Below are positions 1 to 55,668 of a DNA stretch of 64,000 nucleotides, piece after piece (the stretch's first letter is position 1; every line of letters begins with the position of its first letter). The position numbers and the translations under genes were made by a program. Under the pieces are notes generated by a model. That model did not search any database and was not told the origin of the DNA. It worked only from the letters and a program-made list of their open reading frames with translations. This DNA is from a virus (Duplodnaviria; Caudoviricetes), in IMG/VR virus record IMGVR_UViG_3300032007_000001. One strand, 5' to 3'.

Positions 1-178
1 CATCACTAAAATCTGTTTCATCAAATATAAATTCTTGTGCCTTATACGTATCATTACCAACTGCATCAAGAATACCTTTTATTACATTCTTAAAAGATTC
101 ATCCATTTCTTTTTCATTAACAGCAACAATAAAGGATGATGAACTGGAATTCGTTACAAAATCATTTCTTATTTTCAT
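1..178 (-). CDS. TNSSS-motif protein (3' end runs off window)
   Basis: Manual translation from ATG at 178: MKIRNDFVTNSSSSSFIVAVNEKEMDESF...; ATGA overlap with the stop of 175..630; not in ORF track. Confidence 0.85.
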   Translation of the reverse strand, partial: MKIRNDFVTNSSSSSFIVAVNEKEMDESFKNVIKGILDAVGNDTYKAQEFIFDETDFSD

Positions 179-630
179 AAGTTAATTCTCCTTATAATAT
201 TGCCATTGTTTTTGACAACTGTGGATTCAAAATCAAAACTAAATTCGTTGTCAACATTAATATTAAAAACATCTTTTGAATTATTAGAAATTATTTCTTT
301 ATATGTGTCAATATCCAAAAAATCACAATTTGTAAATTCATTAATAAGATGAATTTTTGCAAATGTTTTATCTTCAAAACTATAAAGAAATTGCAATATC
401 TTATCATCATCATGATATTTAATTTCTTTTTCCAAAGAACTATTATAATCCTCAATGAAAATAGAATTAAATATCCAATCAACGTAATCTTTTGGAGACT
501 TTATTGAAATCTTTTTCATTTCTCTCAAAAAATATTGCTTCATATAACTATCAAAATTTTGTCCTTTTTCAAAAGAAACCAAAAATTGAGTAGAAGAAGA
601 ATTTGTAATGAAATCATTTCTAATTTTCAT
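175..630 (-). CDS. TNSSS-motif protein
   Basis: Starts MKIRNDFITNSSSTQF; coupled (ATGA) to the upstream radical SAM gene. Confidence 0.85.
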   Translation of the reverse strand: MKIRNDFITNSSSTQFLVSFEKGQNFDSYMKQYFLREMKKISIKSPKDYVDWIFNSIFIEDYNSSLEKEIKYHDDDKILQFLYSFEDKTFAKIHLINEFTNCDFLDIDTYKEIISNNSKDVFNINVDNEFSFDFESTVVKNNGNIIRRINL

Positions 631-1772
631 TTTTTATATTTCTCCTTTTTATCACACAACACTATTTCATGTTTGATTGGACATCCACCCATGCATATAA
701 TTCTTTTATCGCAATTCATACAAGAATGCATAAGTCTGCTTCTAAAATCATTGAATTTATCAGATTCCCATGCTTCTTTTAATGTATGATTTCTTAAGTC
801 TACGCCCCATTTCATTTCTTGGTCAAAACTACATGGCATCATATGCATATTAGCAGAAATATAAGCAGAAAATCTACCACCTTCACAAGTATCTATGGAA
901 TTCTCATCTATGTCTTCTGAAAAATTTACAATTGCTGGAATAGAGCATGAATCAAATCCAATCTTAAACGGATGTTCTTTGGAAACCAAAAAAAAGAATT
1001 TTTGAATCTTTTCAGAATCGTTTTCCAACGTTAACATATTGTCAATTCTTCCAAGACCAACTGGTTTATATAACAAAAAAATAAATGCATTGATTGGATT
1101 TTCTTCAAAATTATAAATATAAATTTTATTATCGTCTTTCCATTGCAACATATGTTTTTCCAATAAATCAATTGCATCATTAATTGTCTCTTTTGAGAGA
1201 ACAAAATGTATATTCGTTTTACATCCAGCATCAATAAATTTTTTCAAAGCATCTACAGTAAATTTTTGATAATACCATGAAACAGCCACTGCACCACAAT
1301 ATTTTTTTGTAGTAACAACTGCGTCATCAGTCAAATCAATACCGGATGTAGTATAATTTGGAACGATATTATTGCTTCTTGTATATTCACATATTTCATT
1401 AAAATATTGATGGTCATTAGGATTACCAGCTCCACCAAGAGCTACTTGCATTAATCCGTTTTCTTTTCCTTCATCAATAATGGATTTATAATCATCTAAC
1501 TTCATGTCCTTCTCTGGGTCATATTTCCTTGCTCCTTGGTAGCAACCAGATATACTACCACCAGCACGACACAAACCCTTAGAAGCGGCCTTACAACCTC
1601 CCATGATACCGATGTCAAGCAACCCTGGAAAAGAACGCATAAATGGGTCTATGTCAGTATCTTTTCCATCTTTCAAAATTCCACTTCTTATATATTCACC
1701 TGTCAATGTATTAAAAACTTCTATAAATTTGAATTTATAATCAGAATATTTGAGAATATGATTGTTTTCCAA
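627..1772 (-). CDS. Radical SAM/SPASM protein with atypical Cys spacing
   Basis: C-x7-C-x8-C-YQ cluster motif, LGGAGNP, C-terminal SPASM (CEGG...PCSF...CMNC...CMGGC). Confidence 0.85.
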   Translation of the reverse strand: MENNHILKYSDYKFKFIEVFNTLTGEYIRSGILKDGKDTDIDPFMRSFPGLLDIGIMGGCKAASKGLCRAGGSISGCYQGARKYDPEKDMKLDDYKSIIDEGKENGLMQVALGGAGNPNDHQYFNEICEYTRSNNIVPNYTTSGIDLTDDAVVTTKKYCGAVAVSWYYQKFTVDALKKFIDAGCKTNIHFVLSKETINDAIDLLEKHMLQWKDDNKIYIYNFEENPINAFIFLLYKPVGLGRIDNMLTLENDSEKIQKFFFLVSKEHPFKIGFDSCSIPAIVNFSEDIDENSIDTCEGGRFSAYISANMHMMPCSFDQEMKWGVDLRNHTLKEAWESDKFNDFRSRLMHSCMNCDKRIICMGGCPIKHEIVLCDKKEKYKK

Positions 1773-1855
1773 GTTAAGTCCTCCTTAATTAAAAAAGCAT
1801 ACTTTGCAGTATGCTATTTTTTATAATTATACCATAAAATTAATCATAAATACAA

Positions 1856-3466: not shown

Positions 3467-3541
3467 TGGTAGTTCCAACGTGAATTGAACACGTATTTAG
3501 TCCTTGAAAGGGACTCGTCCTAACCATTAGACCATGGAACC
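3467..3541 (-). tRNA. tRNA-Glu (UUC)
   Basis: GGTTCCA...TGGAACT-A-CCA; anticodon arm AGTCC-CT-TTC-AA-GGACT. Confidence 0.92.
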
Positions 3542-3543
3542 AT

Positions 3544-4122
3544 TGGTGCCGAGGACCGGAATCGAACCGGTACGGTGTTGCCACCGAGGGATTTTCTTAC
3601 TACTCTTACTTATAGGGTGTTCAATCATCATATATCCTGGCCGCTCTTTACCCATTTCGTAAGCCATTCCACTAGAAACGTTGTAGTCCGGACTATGTTT
3701 TCACCATATATGATTTATCATCCATACTTAGGTGGTTGGTCTATAGTCTCTACACATTTACTATTAAAAGAAAATATATCACAGAAAGGAGGCTGCCTTC
3801 CAGAACACTGGAAATGTCTTATGTTGATTGTAAAAAACACTTAGATTTTTTAAGATCATATGTTCATCCATTTGTTTTGTGCTTTCGCAATTTCAATTAG
3901 AGAAGCGAACTAATTAAAATTACAAATGGCATTACAACATTTGACGTTTTCTTTTAATAGACTTAGCACGGCGTTCCCAATAATGCTTCACCGTTTTAGC
4001 CAACATTCACTCGAGATGTTTCCTGTCTCGGTGCTCAGACAATTATATTGTCTTGTTGAATTGTTGTGATTCAACAAATATTGGAAAAAGTCCCTTGCGT
4101 CTGCCAGTTCCGCCACCCCGGC
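3544..4122 (-). tRNA. tRNA-Leu (UAA) interrupted by a group I intron (exons 4122..4088 and 3595..3544)
   Basis: 5' exon GCCGGGGTGGCGGAACTGGCAGACGCAAGGGACTT joined to 3' exon AAAATCCCTCGG...GGTTCGATTCCGGTCCTCGGCACCA rebuilds AGGGA-CT-TAA-AA-TCCCT with a long variable arm. Confidence 0.92.
3596..4087 (-). ncRNA. Group I self-splicing intron (492 nt)
   Basis: Inserted after U34 and ends in terminal G; R element GTAGAGACTA (3744-3753) and S element AAAACATAGTCC (3690-3701) form P7. Confidence 0.88.
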
Positions 4123-4155
4123 ATATTCAGTTGTCAATGTACTCCAAACATTTAT

Positions 4156-4184
4156 ATTATAAAACAAAAAAAACACATTGTAAA
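4156..4184 (-). promoter_or_regulatory. Sigma70-like promoter of the tRNA-Leu/Glu operon
   Basis: TTTACA-17-TATAAT. Confidence 0.75.
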
Positions 4185-4225
4185 CATCGATTTATATAAA
4201 ATACAAAAATTTTGTAATTCATTGT

Positions 4226-4252
4226 AAAAAAGAGACTATATTGTCTCTTTTT
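4226..4252. terminator. Palindromic terminator after tail fibre gene
   Basis: AAAAAAGAGAC...GTCTCTTTTT. Confidence 0.65.
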
Positions 4253-4303
4253 ATTTTTAATGATTTTTTATCATAAACAAACCAAACAAATGTCTTAATA
4301 TTT

Positions 4304-5887
4304 TTAATCTGTTGTTTTTGTATATTGAATAGTAACATAAGATTTTGTGAAGTCAGAACTATCAGTAGTTCTTCCCATTAATTGAATAACAGCATTAGAT
4401 TGGTTTGAAAGCAATATAAATTGCACCGTAACATTTAAAGTTGTATAGTTGTCTTGTATCTTTGGTATACTTCTCCAATAGGGTTGACCAGAATTATAAT
4501 TATAGCAGATGCCTTTTATATCGATTATTTCCTTAACAATAGTTTTTTCTAAAGGTAAAGTTATTGTTTTTACTGTACTATTTGGTAATGCCCCACAATC
4601 AACTGTTATTTGATATATCGGCTTACCATCTATCCATGTACCTATTCTTTGTTCTTCTGTACTATAATTATTTTCTGGTGTAGATAATACTGATGTATTA
4701 TATTTAATGCAATATAATACAGAAGTATTTGTAGGACGGGAAGTATAGGCACGACGCACTTCAAAATTATCCGAACCAGTTGTAGTAGATGATTGCGCCC
4801 ATAATCTTCCCCCTGTGGTTTTAATAGCTTTATCTTCGGAAACTACAGCTAGTTTAGTTTCCGAAGTATTAACATCCATTTGTAATTTTGTTCCATTATA
4901 ATGAACATTAGGTATTTCAGTACCGTCTTGATGTACACCAACGTTACTCCCACTGCCTTGATTTGTGTGACTATTAGTCCCTGTGCCACGCAAAAATTCT
5001 CCGCGCAAATCTGGAACTGCAAAAGTGGTAGTTCCATCTCCACCAAAATAATTATAACTACCAAATTGTGCTTTAATATACTCTGCTAATTCTTTATAAT
5101 CTATTATATTATAGACTGTCCCGTCGCAAGCTAAATAATCTTTTGGAGCAGTATTACCCATATAAGAAATAACAGTTCCTATTGGAGTATCATTATAAAG
5201 AGTATTAGATGTATCTTTTCTATATTTTATCTGTGGTATTAATGTTATTGCTGGAGGTTGTACTGTATCTACTGAATCTGAATAGATAGAATTACTACTA
5301 TTTGCGCTAAATTTCATGTTCGTTTTATACTGCCCAGCACCGGTCGCTGTTGTAACTTGTTGGAGTTTCCCGACTGTTGCTGTGGCCTTAGAATTAGTAA
5401 ACGCGCCTGATTTTCCGCGAATATTTGCATCTTCTGACGATGGAGTTTCTAAAAACTCAGCAGACCCAAAATATTCGCCTTTTATATTAGGCAATCCTGC
5501 TTCTTTTTCTTCTACTGTACTACCACCTTGTAATACTAAATCTATATAATTTGGTAATGTTAATACATCTGTATTGCTATTATATTTGAATAAAGCTTTA
5601 TTAGAAGAATCATTAGTAATTAAATTATTATCTTGAGCATAATCTAATAATTCCTTATAATCTGTTGAAGCATCAGCTAAATTCGTACCATCTAATTTAA
5701 GATAGTCTCTTAATAGAGACATCTGCCAAGTTATATATCCAACCGGTGCATCTGATGCCACAACAGCACTAGATACATTAACATCTCCTAAATAATCATC
5801 TATATTATTTGACGTTAAATTTTTTACTACCTTAAATTTTGCAGAACCATAAGTTATAGTATCATTTAGCGCAGTCAATTTTTTCAC
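4304..5887 (-). CDS. Tail fibre protein with phage tail-collar domain
   Basis: PIGTVISYMG...YLACDG...FAVPDLRGEFLRG collar motif; IGTWIDGKPIY C-terminal module; N-terminus shared with 61697..63235. Confidence 0.85.
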   Translation of the reverse strand: MKKLTALNDTITYGSAKFKVVKNLTSNNIDDYLGDVNVSSAVVASDAPVGYITWQMSLLRDYLKLDGTNLADASTDYKELLDYAQDNNLITNDSSNKALFKYNSNTDVLTLPNYIDLVLQGGSTVEEKEAGLPNIKGEYFGSAEFLETPSSEDANIRGKSGAFTNSKATATVGKLQQVTTATGAGQYKTNMKFSANSSNSIYSDSVDTVQPPAITLIPQIKYRKDTSNTLYNDTPIGTVISYMGNTAPKDYLACDGTVYNIIDYKELAEYIKAQFGSYNYFGGDGTTTFAVPDLRGEFLRGTGTNSHTNQGSGSNVGVHQDGTEIPNVHYNGTKLQMDVNTSETKLAVVSEDKAIKTTGGRLWAQSSTTTGSDNFEVRRAYTSRPTNTSVLYCIKYNTSVLSTPENNYSTEEQRIGTWIDGKPIYQITVDCGALPNSTVKTITLPLEKTIVKEIIDIKGICYNYNSGQPYWRSIPKIQDNYTTLNVTVQFILLSNQSNAVIQLMGRTTDSSDFTKSYVTIQYTKTTD

Positions 5888-5920
5888 TCCTATACTTAAA
5901 AATCTGTCTCTTTATAAAAT

Positions 5921-53534: not shown

Positions 53535-54026
53535 TTAGCTCTTTATTTCATATAAAACGATTTTATTGTTTTTTAATGATTCTTGTACATTTATTATTCT
53601 TTGATTTTTTGACCCTTTAAATTGAAGTGATATATCTCTTTGTTCTACAATAAATTTTCCATCTACTAATACATCAATATATTTTAGCATTTCATATTTG
53701 TCTTTATCTTTTAAGAGTTCTTCAAAATCATATCCAGTATAAGCCCATATATTATATTTCTCGTGTACTTTTTTTACTAATGAAAGTAATTCTATAGATT
53801 GTTCAAATGGGTCTCCTCCTGAAAGTGTCAGACCATCTAAAAGAGGATTTTGTTCCATTAATGTATAAATGCTTTCTGGTGAATATAAATGATTATATTC
53901 AAAACTCCAGGTTTCTAGATTTTGGCATTCTTTACAATGATGCTTGCATCCTTGACAAAATATTACTAATCTGATACCTTCACCATCGACTATTGATTCT
54001 TCTACTATATCATATACATTAATCAT
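53535..54026 (-). CDS. nrdG: Anaerobic ribonucleotide reductase activating protein
   Basis: ESIVDGEGIR..FCQGCKHHCKECQN, LSGGDP, DVLVDGKF, FKGSKNQRII. Confidence 0.93.
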   Translation of the reverse strand: MINVYDIVEESIVDGEGIRLVIFCQGCKHHCKECQNLETWSFEYNHLYSPESIYTLMEQNPLLDGLTLSGGDPFEQSIELLSLVKKVHEKYNIWAYTGYDFEELLKDKDKYEMLKYIDVLVDGKFIVEQRDISLQFKGSKNQRIINVQESLKNNKIVLYEIKS

Positions 54027-54535
54027 TTAATTGTCACCTGACAACTTTTCATCACTTTTAATGCTGCATTATGATTTGGTTTTGTTGTTCCAGCACAACA
54101 TTTTTTGTCAATAATAATTTCTTTTTCTGGATAAAACATCTTAAGCATCAATGCATTTGCTATTACGCAAATATCAGTACATACTCCAATTAATTCGATG
54201 CTATCATAATCTTTTGTAAGAGTAACAAGAGAAAATCCACCAAAAGTATCTTTCTCTGCTATATATTTTGCTTTTCCTAAGAATTCTGCCAATTGCGGAA
54301 TGATATGCCAACCTTTTGTGTCTTTAATACAATGCTCAATTGGAAGATTTTTTCCTTCTTGTGTTTTAAGATAATCTTTATCGTGTGTGTCCATTGTAAA
54401 AATTAAATCTTTTTTATTTTTCTTTAATTTTATTATAATCTTTGGTACAATTAATTCAGCGTCTTTATTTGCTAATGAACCAGTAACAAAATCATTTTGC
54501 ATATCAACAATAATAAGTACTTCTTTTTTCCCCAT
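54023..54535 (-). CDS. pncA: Nicotinamidase / isochorismatase-family cysteine hydrolase
   Basis: IVDMQNDF, TMDTH, HCI, KDTFG, GVCTDICV. Confidence 0.82.
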   Translation of the reverse strand: MGKKEVLIIVDMQNDFVTGSLANKDAELIVPKIIIKLKKNKKDLIFTMDTHDKDYLKTQEGKNLPIEHCIKDTKGWHIIPQLAEFLGKAKYIAEKDTFGGFSLVTLTKDYDSIELIGVCTDICVIANALMLKMFYPEKEIIIDKKCCAGTTKPNHNAALKVMKSCQVTIK

Positions 54536-54536
54536 T

Positions 54537-54869
54537 TTATTCTCCCCATTCCAAAATAAATTTTTCTACAAACAAATCAAATAATATTTCATATTTTTTC
54601 ATATCAAAATTAAAATCTTTTCCAGTAAGACATCTATTTGACTTTATTTCAAAAATAAAGTCTCTTTTTTTATAAATGCATATATCAAATATATATATTT
54701 TTTCTTTTTCTAAAAAAATAAATGGTTTTATTTCTCTATTAAAAGAGAAACCGAAACTATCCTTAAATGCTTCTGCTAACCAAGTAGCTTCTGATTCTTT
54801 ATCAAATTTATTAAATAATACCATCATTTCTATTGAATCATTATGTGATTCACACATTTTTATTTTCAT
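54537..54869 (-). CDS. Hypothetical protein
   Basis: 110-aa ORF in operon. Confidence 0.6.
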   Translation of the reverse strand: MKIKMCESHNDSIEMMVLFNKFDKESEATWLAEAFKDSFGFSFNREIKPFIFLEKEKIYIFDICIYKKRDFIFEIKSNRCLTGKDFNFDMKKYEILFDLFVEKFILEWGE

Positions 54870-54871
54870 GG

Positions 54872-55339
54872 TTAATGATTGTTTTGATAAATGATAATTG
54901 TGCCATTTTCATATTCGTTTTTTATAAAAACAGAATCTCTATCCATTTCGGCTTCTAAAATTCCGCCATCATCTCCAAATTCACCTTGGAAAAAATGTTT
55001 GCCTTTAAGTTTTTCAAATAATTCTTTGCTTTTTTTCTCTGCATATTTTAATGATTCTTCTTCTTTTTCTTCGTAACTTAATGGAACATCATAATCCCAA
55101 ACTGGAGAACTATATTTACGATGTTCAATAATTTCTTTTTTAGCCGTTTCTTCATCTATTTCGCTTAAATAATTTTTTAATAAATTTTTTAAGCATTCAA
55201 ATTCATTGTCTACTTGCGTATATCGTGGATAAACATCGTCCTTTAATTCATTTTCAATAAAATCGTCAAAATTATTATTTGTAGCAATAATATAAGAACT
55301 AGAACTTGAATTTGTAACAAAATCTTTTCTAATTTTCAT
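54872..55339 (-). CDS. TNSSS-motif protein
   Basis: MKIRKDFVTNSSSSSYII. Confidence 0.85.
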   Translation of the reverse strand: MKIRKDFVTNSSSSSYIIATNNNFDDFIENELKDDVYPRYTQVDNEFECLKNLLKNYLSEIDEETAKKEIIEHRKYSSPVWDYDVPLSYEEKEEESLKYAEKKSKELFEKLKGKHFFQGEFGDDGGILEAEMDRDSVFIKNEYENGTIIIYQNNH

Positions 55340-55353
55340 TGTTTACACTCCAA

Positions 55354-55668
55354 TCAATTTACAATTACTGGCCTTGGCATTTTCGCTGGAATTTCAACGT
55401 TTTGCGTAAAAGTATTTTTCGTTACTTTACCTTTGAATTCTTTATTTGGCGCTGGAGAAATTGAAGTAATTCCAGACTTGAATGCCAAACTAACTCCATT
55501 TTTCCCAAGCAATTGAATTGTAAACTGGTCAAATGATACTATCTTTCCAATTAAGTATCTTCCATCTGTAAAATTAATTTGTACTTTTTCATTTTTTGTT
55601 CTTAAATCATTTAAAAATTTGTCTTGCGAACGATGACCTTGATTAGCGACTTCTACTTGTACTGCCAT
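55354..55668 (-). CDS. hfq: RNA chaperone Hfq homolog
   Basis: QDKFLNDLR...G..LIGKIVSFDQFTI...FKSGITSISP (Sm1/Sm2). Confidence 0.82.
   Translation of the reverse strand: MAVQVEVANQGHRSQDKFLNDLRTKNEKVQINFTDGRYLIGKIVSFDQFTIQLLGKNGVSLAFKSGITSISPAPNKEFKGKVTKNTFTQNVEIPAKMPRPVIVN

Follow-up and report, generated by a model that had tools for sequence, protein, structure and literature searches.

A radical SAM enzyme gene heads a row of genes with a shared N-terminal motif

We analysed a 64,000-nucleotide stretch of DNA (hereafter the window) that covers bases 385,438-449,437 of the 504,279-bp IMG/VR virus record IMGVR_UViG_3300032007_000001 (29.7% G+C), from an uncultured phage. Near the left edge of the window lies a gene for a radical S-adenosylmethionine (SAM) enzyme with a SPASM domain, followed by genes for proteins that share a short N-terminal motif. 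We refer to this motif as the tag and to the proteins that carry it as clients. The enzyme and its tagged clients are all encoded on the minus strand (Table 1). ATGA start/stop overlaps join the enzyme gene to that of client A (627-630) and the client A gene to that of client B (175-178), and client F lies far from both. This is the arrangement that an earlier note on this DNA had described, with an enzyme translationally coupled to two proteins that begin MKIRNDF[IV]TNSSS and a third copy about 54 kb off. A terminator-like hairpin separates the enzyme from the gene upstream of it, which indicates that a separate transcription unit begins there.

The whole record contains six tagged genes. Four stand in tandem 3' of the enzyme and encode clients of 151, 110, 166 and 199 amino acids (aa), a row that the left edge of the window truncates. 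The 166-aa client is zinc-ribbon-like, with seven cysteines. The remaining two are dispersed, one at a distance of about 96 kb on one side, outside the window, and client F at about 54 kb on the other. A degenerate DNA pattern for the tag matched the window exactly three times (starts at 178, 630 and 55339, all on the minus strand), versus no match in 100 shuffles.

Table 1. Features of the enzyme and its tagged clients, in window coordinates
Feature	Position	Strand	Remarks
Terminator-like hairpin	1796..1815	-	Between upstream gene and enzyme
Ribosome-binding site AGGAGG	1780..1785	-	7 nt 5' of the enzyme TTG start at 1772; read from the sequence
Radical SAM/SPASM enzyme, 381 aa, TTG start	627..1772	-	Cx7Cx8C, GGxG[DN]P, SPASM CX2CX5CX3C, Lys185
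Client A, 151 aa, isoelectric point (pI) 4.9	175..630	-	N-terminus MKIRNDFITNSSSTQF; no relatives outside the tag
Client B, first 59 of 110 aa	1..178	-	N-terminus MKIRNDFVTNSSSSSF; rest left of the window; genome 385283-385615
Client F, 155 aa, pI 4.7	54872..55339	-	N-terminus MKIRKDFVTNSSSSSY; dispersed copy

The tag is nearly invariant on otherwise unrelated proteins

The consensus of the tag is M-K-[IVF]-[RK]-x-D-F-V-T-N-S-S-S-(S-S)-[FY], followed by a hydrophobic stretch. Its conservation among 306 unique clients is extreme: M1 98%, K2 99%, R4 99%, D6 82% (G in 15%), F7 93%, V8 97%, T9 100%, N10 99%, S11-13 100%, S14 and S15 94% each, and F/Y16 98%. It contains neither cysteine nor tryptophan, and a variant with serine in place of Thr9 was found (GFVSNSSSSSF). 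Among 1.84 billion proteins, a 35-column profile of the tag matched 20,734 representatives of clusters at 50% identity, and in nearly all of these the match began at residue 1. Five database proteins carry two tags (P0131, P0132, P0133, P0135 and P0139). Most of these read as fusions of neighbouring client genes, since the internal copy still starts with methionine.

The tag is fixed throughout while the client bodies diverge. All six phage clients have an acidic pI (4.3-5.3), and past residue 18 no two of them are significantly similar, in agreement with the earlier note. Compared with their counterparts in the nearest megaphages, the client bodies reach at most 42% identity (the zinc-ribbon type), 28%, or none that is detectable; the enzyme is 67-70% identical to the nearest megaphage enzymes. 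After trimming of the tag, the 306 unique clients fell into 53 BLAST groups, and profile-profile comparison (HHalign) of the 12 largest groups revealed essentially no relationship among them. Client sizes range from 82 to 918 aa. Long bacterial clients contain BspA-type leucine-rich repeats (LRR; LRR_5), BRCT or PQQ beta-propeller domains, and others contain membrane-like segments. Searches of the phage clients against Pfam, NCBIfam, PHROGs and PADLOC gave no meaningful match. A word-based homologue search with client F returned only five relatives, an index of this kind being unsuited to so short a tag.

Client B belongs to the largest client subfamily, and we modelled it with AlphaFold2 from 51 subfamily members (predicted local distance difference test score, pLDDT, 77.7). 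Residues 1-13 are unstructured in this model, with pLDDT below 50 at residues 6-11, while S14-V20 form strand 1 of a small ferredoxin-like alpha/beta domain. Fold searches with the model gave only generic ferredoxin-like matches (Z ≤ 5.9), and its neighbours in the ESM Atlas are viral 'hypothetical protein' clusters. The earlier note had proposed structure prediction as a way to choose between a buried strand, as in N-terminal nucleophile (Ntn) proteins, and an exposed leader, and the unstructured residues of the model favour the leader. A tag buried in one very divergent, perhaps self-processing fold as a catalytic or structural element, with the clients simply paralogues, would fit the resemblance of the Ser/Thr-rich N-terminus to nucleophile motifs and the tandem arrays, which suggest duplication. 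We find this scarcely credible, given the disorder predicted for residues 1-13, the lack of HHalign similarity among tag-removed subfamilies, and the LRR, BRCT, propeller, zinc-ribbon and membrane-like bodies that the tag heads.

Tag and enzyme occur in the same genomes

Our set of 160 enzyme loci was drawn in equal parts (80 each) from IMG/VR and from prokaryote genomes of GTDB, with one genome per species. A tagged open reading frame (ORF) lies within 6 kb of the enzyme in 148 of the 160 loci, with up to eight per locus, and 394 of 397 tagged ORFs are on the enzyme's strand. The loci without an apparent tag have a G/S variant at position 6 or are mostly short contigs.

The association holds genome-wide. 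In the order to which Schaedlerella belongs, five of 201 sampled genomes had a match to the tag profile, and the identical five had one to the enzyme profile. In the order of Ruminococcus sp. YRD2003, the two profiles likewise agreed on six of 301 genomes. Pooled, the tag is present in 11/11 genomes with the enzyme and in 0/491 others, a count with no correction for relatedness in which the systems are scattered among the genomes. In these 11 genomes, no tag is farther than about 3 kb from an enzyme gene, except for a single copy about 10 kb away. Another ten genomes, which represent six phyla and include Anaerolinea, Bacteroidales, Desulfobacterales, Coriobacteriales and a Kaiserbacteria genome, had every genome-wide tag match at the enzyme locus. 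The pair is also found in non-phage bacterial contexts and in bacteria of the Candidate Phyla Radiation (CPR). Motif proteins that commonly occur without the enzyme, which the earlier note had named in advance as evidence against its idea, were not what we found.

These results are based on profile searches. The degenerate DNA pattern was also tried as a phyletic test and abandoned, as it gave false positives in four genomes (G038, G040, G087 and G200) and missed a variant in another (G089).

Among the ORFs around 110 non-redundant enzymes, we found no recurrent protease, transporter or second enzyme that could be a third component. The recurrent same-strand neighbours were client subfamilies and, in 18 bacterial loci, an XRE-like helix-turn-helix protein. 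This protein of about 114 aa, encoded directly 3' of the enzyme in Lachnospiraceae-type loci (e.g. L133:7095), is the sole recurrent non-client. A client of 120-130 aa is often encoded directly 5' of the enzyme in bacterial loci. At the locus of Schaedlerella arabinosiphila DSM 106076 (L096), the sole client, at 5907, is stopped by a TAG codon after 26 residues and the enzyme gene is intact; this locus may be a decaying system.

The enzyme resembles peptide and protein maturases

The C-terminal part of the enzyme matches SPASM (PF13186; 31.3 bits versus a cut-off of 21.5, E = 2.6e-7) in Pfam and TIGR04085 (29.7 bits versus 27) in NCBIfam. It contains the full SPASM motif CX2CX5CX3C (C351, C354, C360 and C364) and further cysteines at C276, C296, C314 and C373, and thus shows the C-terminal pattern that defines the SPASM subfamily with two auxiliary clusters (CX9-15GX4C ... 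CX2CX5CX3C ... C). The best equivalog profiles in NCBIfam (W-cofactor maturase, PqqE, MftC and the anaerobic sulfatase-maturating enzyme, anSME) all scored far under their cut-offs, and the only match in PHROGs was to family 7293, which has no assigned function. Homologues of the enzyme form 4,778 clusters at 90% identity (E ≤ 0.001), many on contigs of 150-500 kb, and such names as the sources give them go no further than 'SPASM domain-containing protein' or the like. Across these thousands of homologues, the three cluster cysteines, GGxG[DN]P, CYQ and the eight SPASM cysteines are invariant or nearly so. PADLOC-DB 2.0 defence profiles matched neither the enzyme nor four of the five clients tested, and client B had two matches at chance level (E ~1e-3).

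An AlphaFold2 model of the enzyme from 54 homologues has a pLDDT of 92.6. Its best structural match is SuiB (Z = 26.2, root-mean-square deviation 3.2 Å over 320 residues, N-terminal domain included), followed by SkfB (Z = 23.6), CteB (21.4), anSMEcpe (21.3), PqqE (21.1), ChlB (20.9) and TigE (19.6). The model has the partial (beta/alpha)6 TIM barrel of radical SAM enzymes, with the invariant GGxG[DN]P as the SAM motif of GGE type, and aligns with SuiB, SkfB, anSME, PqqE, viperin and MoaA at Z values of 17-26. SkfB is also the sole significant sequence match in the PDB. The matches to SuiB, SkfB, CteB and anSME identify the enzyme as a radical SAM/SPASM protein of the peptide- or protein-maturase type.

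The folds nearest to this model are maturases of peptides that are synthesized ribosomally and then modified post-translationally (RiPPs) with N-terminal leader-binding domains (SuiB, SkfB and CteB). The tag might correspondingly be a leader that recruits the enzyme, the modified residues lying in the variable bodies downstream or a peptide being released, and the bacterial client of 120-130 aa is placed as a precursor gene would be. The N-terminus of the enzyme aligns with that of SuiB (model residues 1-375 to chain residues 2-439) but has roughly half the domain size. Its residues 1-50 form three short strands without helices in the model, compared with the three strands and three helices of the winged-helix RiPP recognition element (RRE), the leader-binding domain that we used for comparison. 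The client bodies have no common core motif, reach 918 aa with folded LRR, BRCT or propeller domains, and are not accompanied by a recurrent peptidase or exporter in the 110 non-redundant loci; the tag, moreover, leads straight into the first strand of the fold. We therefore regard a leader function of the RiPP kind as quite unlikely.

The cluster motif is a loop-expanded variant of the canonical motif

The cysteine motif of the radical SAM cluster reads C60-x7-C68-x8-C77, followed by YQG, which is the spacing that the earlier note had pointed out and which differs from the canonical CX3CX2C of the superfamily. Among 188 unique family members from the collected loci, we found Cx7Cx6C in 137 enzymes, Cx3Cx2C in 27, Cx3Cx3C in 12, Cx5Cx3C in five and Cx7Cx8C in two. 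The 27 enzymes with canonical spacing form a sister clade of about 40% identity with the motif GIMGHCxNxCxFCYQG and a shorter, twitch-like C-terminus that lacks CX2CX5CX3C. Members of this clade come from IMG/VR contigs (L187-L201 and L205-L208) and from two bacterial genomes (G280 and G371), with up to five clients per locus. Their tag is MKIKxDFVTNSSSxx[FY], so the universal core shared by both clades is DFVTNSSS.

Given that the spacings form a graded series reaching CX3CX2C within one family, Cx7Cx8C is best read from the sequences as the long end of that series, in which insertions separate three retained ligands and the cluster has not been lost. The earlier note had called the motif atypical; loop-expanded canonical appears to be the better description. 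The same series led us to reject a hidden Markov model alignment to SkfB in which C68 and C77 would be the first and third cysteines and the middle one lost.

Tag residue 6 covaries with enzyme residue 185

Position 6 of the tag is uniform within loci: 91 loci have only D, 24 only G, four only S, and three are mixed. Orthologous client subfamilies follow the type of their genome, with D in the D-type and G in the G-type ones, and all clients of a genome switch together. We scanned every column of the enzyme against the state of this residue, with additional IMG/VR scans that supplied new lineages. Of 132 enzymes whose tags are D-only, 130 carry Lys or Arg at position 185 (in the context AGC-K-TNIHFVL), whereas 24 of the 25 enzymes with non-D tags carry Thr or Leu there; a further 36 enzymes without Lys or Arg at 185 were found. 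Column 185 departs from the D-type consensus in eight of ten non-D lineages, compared with four for the runner-up column. On the tree, there are six changes of the tag and seven at position 185. Weaker associations were found for columns 36, 38, 222, 226, 228 and 270, which according to the model would lie in a loop of the N-terminal domain and at the N-terminal ends of barrel strands, i.e. on one face of the barrel. One mixed locus, in a 214-kb provirus record (L343, record G208), has two Gly6 tags and one Asp6 tag with Thr185 and Cx5Cx6C in the enzyme, and may represent a transitional state.

The pairing in 11 of 502 genomes and the covariation of Asp6 with Lys/Arg185 support the suggestion of the earlier note that the motif is a recognition tag on folded, unrelated proteins. 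We consider it very probable that enzyme and tag are the two components of one system, with physical recognition of the tag by the enzyme. Hypervariable phage proteins can also have a short N-terminus in common, as in the capsid-targeting sequences of phage T4, and two of the six phage clients are far from the enzyme, as might be expected if the tag were a sorting, packaging, secretion or degradation signal for other machinery and the enzyme merely co-inherited. Such a signal would have to account for the identical distribution of tag and enzyme, for the non-phage bacterial and CPR contexts of the pair, for a tag residue that tracks an enzyme residue, and for the lack of another conserved partner gene around the 110 non-redundant enzymes, which makes it highly unlikely.

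The operon lies among tail-fibre-like genes

Upstream of the enzyme, positions 4304-5887 (minus strand) encode a protein of 527 aa that contains a Phage Tail Collar domain (PF07484, E = 3e-16). Outside the window, the 199-aa client is followed 3' by an untagged ORF of 116 aa and then by large structural-looking genes of 652 and 592 aa. The operon thus lies among tail-fibre-like genes. Genes for tRNA-Arg(TCT) (2785-2859) and tRNA-Glu(TTC) (3467-3541), both on the minus strand, lie just upstream of the operon. A megablast search of the first 6 kb against phage records matched only the tRNA-Glu region (Staphylococcus phage, 89%). The interval 3540-4300 is richer in G+C, without convincing ORFs, and contains tRNA-like fragments, such as the translation AGVAELADARD around 4090-4130. 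A match of 3555-3571 to the 3' end of transfer-messenger RNA (tmRNA) was at chance level (E = 0.1), and ARAGORN and Rfam called nothing else in this interval.

Client F, in the neighbourhood 53535-55668 (minus strand), has the gene of a phage Hfq homologue (E = 4e-13) on one side. On the other are the genes of an isochorismatase-family protein (E = 4e-21) and of an NrdG-like activase (Fer4_12, E = 2e-43).

Proposed mechanism

We favour a protein-modification system in which one enzyme serves many clients through an exposed N-terminal tag, and consider this probable. With similar moderate confidence, we infer that the tag is covalently modified, given the class of the enzyme, the fact that all cluster ligands are kept and the almost complete lack of variation in TNSSS. 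In the binding geometry that we envisage, tag residues Lys2-Val8 would rest against the N-terminal beta domain and against one face of the barrel, with Asp6 paired with Lys/Arg185 of the enzyme. The invariant small polar residues Thr9-Ser13 would loop into the active site, and the subsequent [FY]-[IV]-[IVLC] would already belong to the first strand of the client fold. A 5'-deoxyadenosyl radical would then take a hydrogen atom from a residue within Thr9-Ser13. The likeliest outcome would be a carbonyl formed by oxidation from a Ser or Thr side chain (a handle of the formylglycine type), and the second likeliest a C-C or C-O cross-link with Phe7 or [FY]16. Thioether chemistry is excluded since the tag lacks cysteine. 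Radical SAM enzymes with a SPASM domain (anSME) and with a twitch domain (BtrN) are alcohol dehydrogenases, and the tags of both clades have hydroxyls at positions 9 and 11-13; by this analogy, we tentatively rank Ser/Thr oxidation first and the cross-link second.

Several observations weigh against this reading. The covariation is based on roughly five to six independent transitions. Three independent pairs are well supported and all are concordant, which gives p = 0.25 in a sign test, and with so few pairs the formal test is underpowered. Loci L039, L132, L285 and the mixed L343 are exceptions to the covariation. Residue 185 is placed relative to the active site by predicted secondary structure only. 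In P0133, the internal DFVTNSSSTSF lacks the MKIK part, and the few proteins with such an internal tag core suggest that a free N-terminus may not be needed. C276-D277 of anSME aligns with C314-S315 of our enzyme, so that a serine replaces Asp277, which we take to be catalytic (a literature search gave nothing relevant). The Radical_SAM profile (PF04055) scored 24.2 bits, under its cut-off of 29.5, which leaves a loss of catalysis possible, and we know of no precedent for a spacing of 6-8 residues between the second and third cluster cysteines. The modification chemistry is a proposal from sequence and models.

Some of these points would equally suit an enzyme that binds the tag without radical chemistry, i.e. 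a degenerate radical SAM protein in the role of a chaperone, of an adaptor for assembly or packaging, or of a holder that senses redox state. The spacing is non-canonical in this enzyme and in most members of the family (Cx7Cx6C), its Radical_SAM score is low, no product has been seen, and co-occurrence and covariation require binding alone. Conversely, the near-invariance of the cluster cysteines, GGxG[DN]P, CYQ and the eight SPASM cysteines, the use of the same tag by a sister clade with canonical CX3CX2C, and an invariance of TNSSS that exceeds the usual needs of docking all argue for catalysis. We consider binding without chemistry unlikely and retain modification of the tag as the preferred reading.

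The phage clients are fast-evolving small acidic proteins in arrays, which suggests that they are infection-stage effectors, and as such they would probably need the mark. Such arrays are prime candidates for anti-defence or host-takeover factors, and a modified tag would explain their occurrence in megaphages and gut prophages. More speculatively, the tag may be a portable, encodable address with which a single radical SAM enzyme puts a reactive carbonyl (or a radical cross-link) on the N-terminus of any protein. Phages might use it to arm diversifying effector arrays, for example as covalent or protease-resistant inhibitors of host defence, and bacteria and mobile elements to mark LRR, BRCT and propeller binding proteins; we regard this wider role as a conjecture, possible but doubtful.

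This strikingly invariant motif is shared by more than 20,000 protein clusters, none of them annotated beyond 'hypothetical', and is always paired with one unannotated enzyme family. If the enzyme modifies the tag, the system would be a new class of radical SAM post-translational modification, one that acts on whole, unrelated proteins via a transferable tag. It would also add a new cluster-motif variant to the radical SAM field and might provide biotechnology with an orthogonal tagging tool. The Asp6-Lys185 pair is a directly testable contact.

Comparison with known systems

Literature searches for the motif strings and for combinations of phage, SPASM and Avs2 returned, among the searchable papers, no description of the motif or of its pairing with an enzyme. 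The system resembles the anSMEs (AtsB, anSMEcpe and ChuR) in that a radical SAM/SPASM enzyme would act on whole proteins, at a short motif close to their N-terminus and not on an exported peptide, with one enzyme for many clients; the fold match to anSMEcpe extends over 287 residues (Z = 21.3). The anSMEs oxidise a Ser or Cys side chain. Their clients, however, are all sulfatases with C/S-x-P/A-x-R inside one fold, whereas the clients here are unrelated and carry an N-terminal tag without C/S-x-P/A-x-R, and the cysteine spacing of the enzyme is expanded. Judged by its sequence, the enzyme is not an anSME: TIGR03942 scored 17.4 bits versus a cut-off of 349, and Ser315 takes the place of Asp277. 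The anSME-type Ser oxidation offered as an example in the earlier note is one candidate among others.

The best structural matches are SuiB/StrB (the Lys-Trp cross-linking enzymes of streptide) and the sactisynthases SkfB and CteB, which have three [4Fe-4S] sites and recognise a segment of their substrate. These differ in that their substrates are short, dedicated Cys/Trp peptides encoded in clusters with a protease and an exporter, neither of which recurs here. The clients, at 82-918 aa and folded, do not resemble the products of RiPP clusters, and the conserved tag lacks the donor cysteine that sactisynthase and ranthipeptide substrates provide.

The capsid-targeting sequences of T4 internal proteins are likewise short conserved N-terminal peptides on hypervariable, small, clustered phage proteins. 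They are read by the prohead scaffold and a protease, without a known radical SAM partner, and are known only from T4-like phages, whereas the present tag is also found in bacterial chromosomes, always together with the enzyme.

The nearest printed precedent is CrpC/CrpA of Methanococcus voltae (PMC13692751), in which a radical SAM/SPASM enzyme acts on a neighbouring protein. Like CrpC, QhpD is a SPASM radical SAM enzyme, and for both, modification of a protein-sized substrate from an adjacent gene has been shown or proposed. Both systems form thioethers on Cys-rich proteins, with one dedicated substrate each, whereas the enzyme described here is paired with a Cys-free tag on many unrelated substrates.

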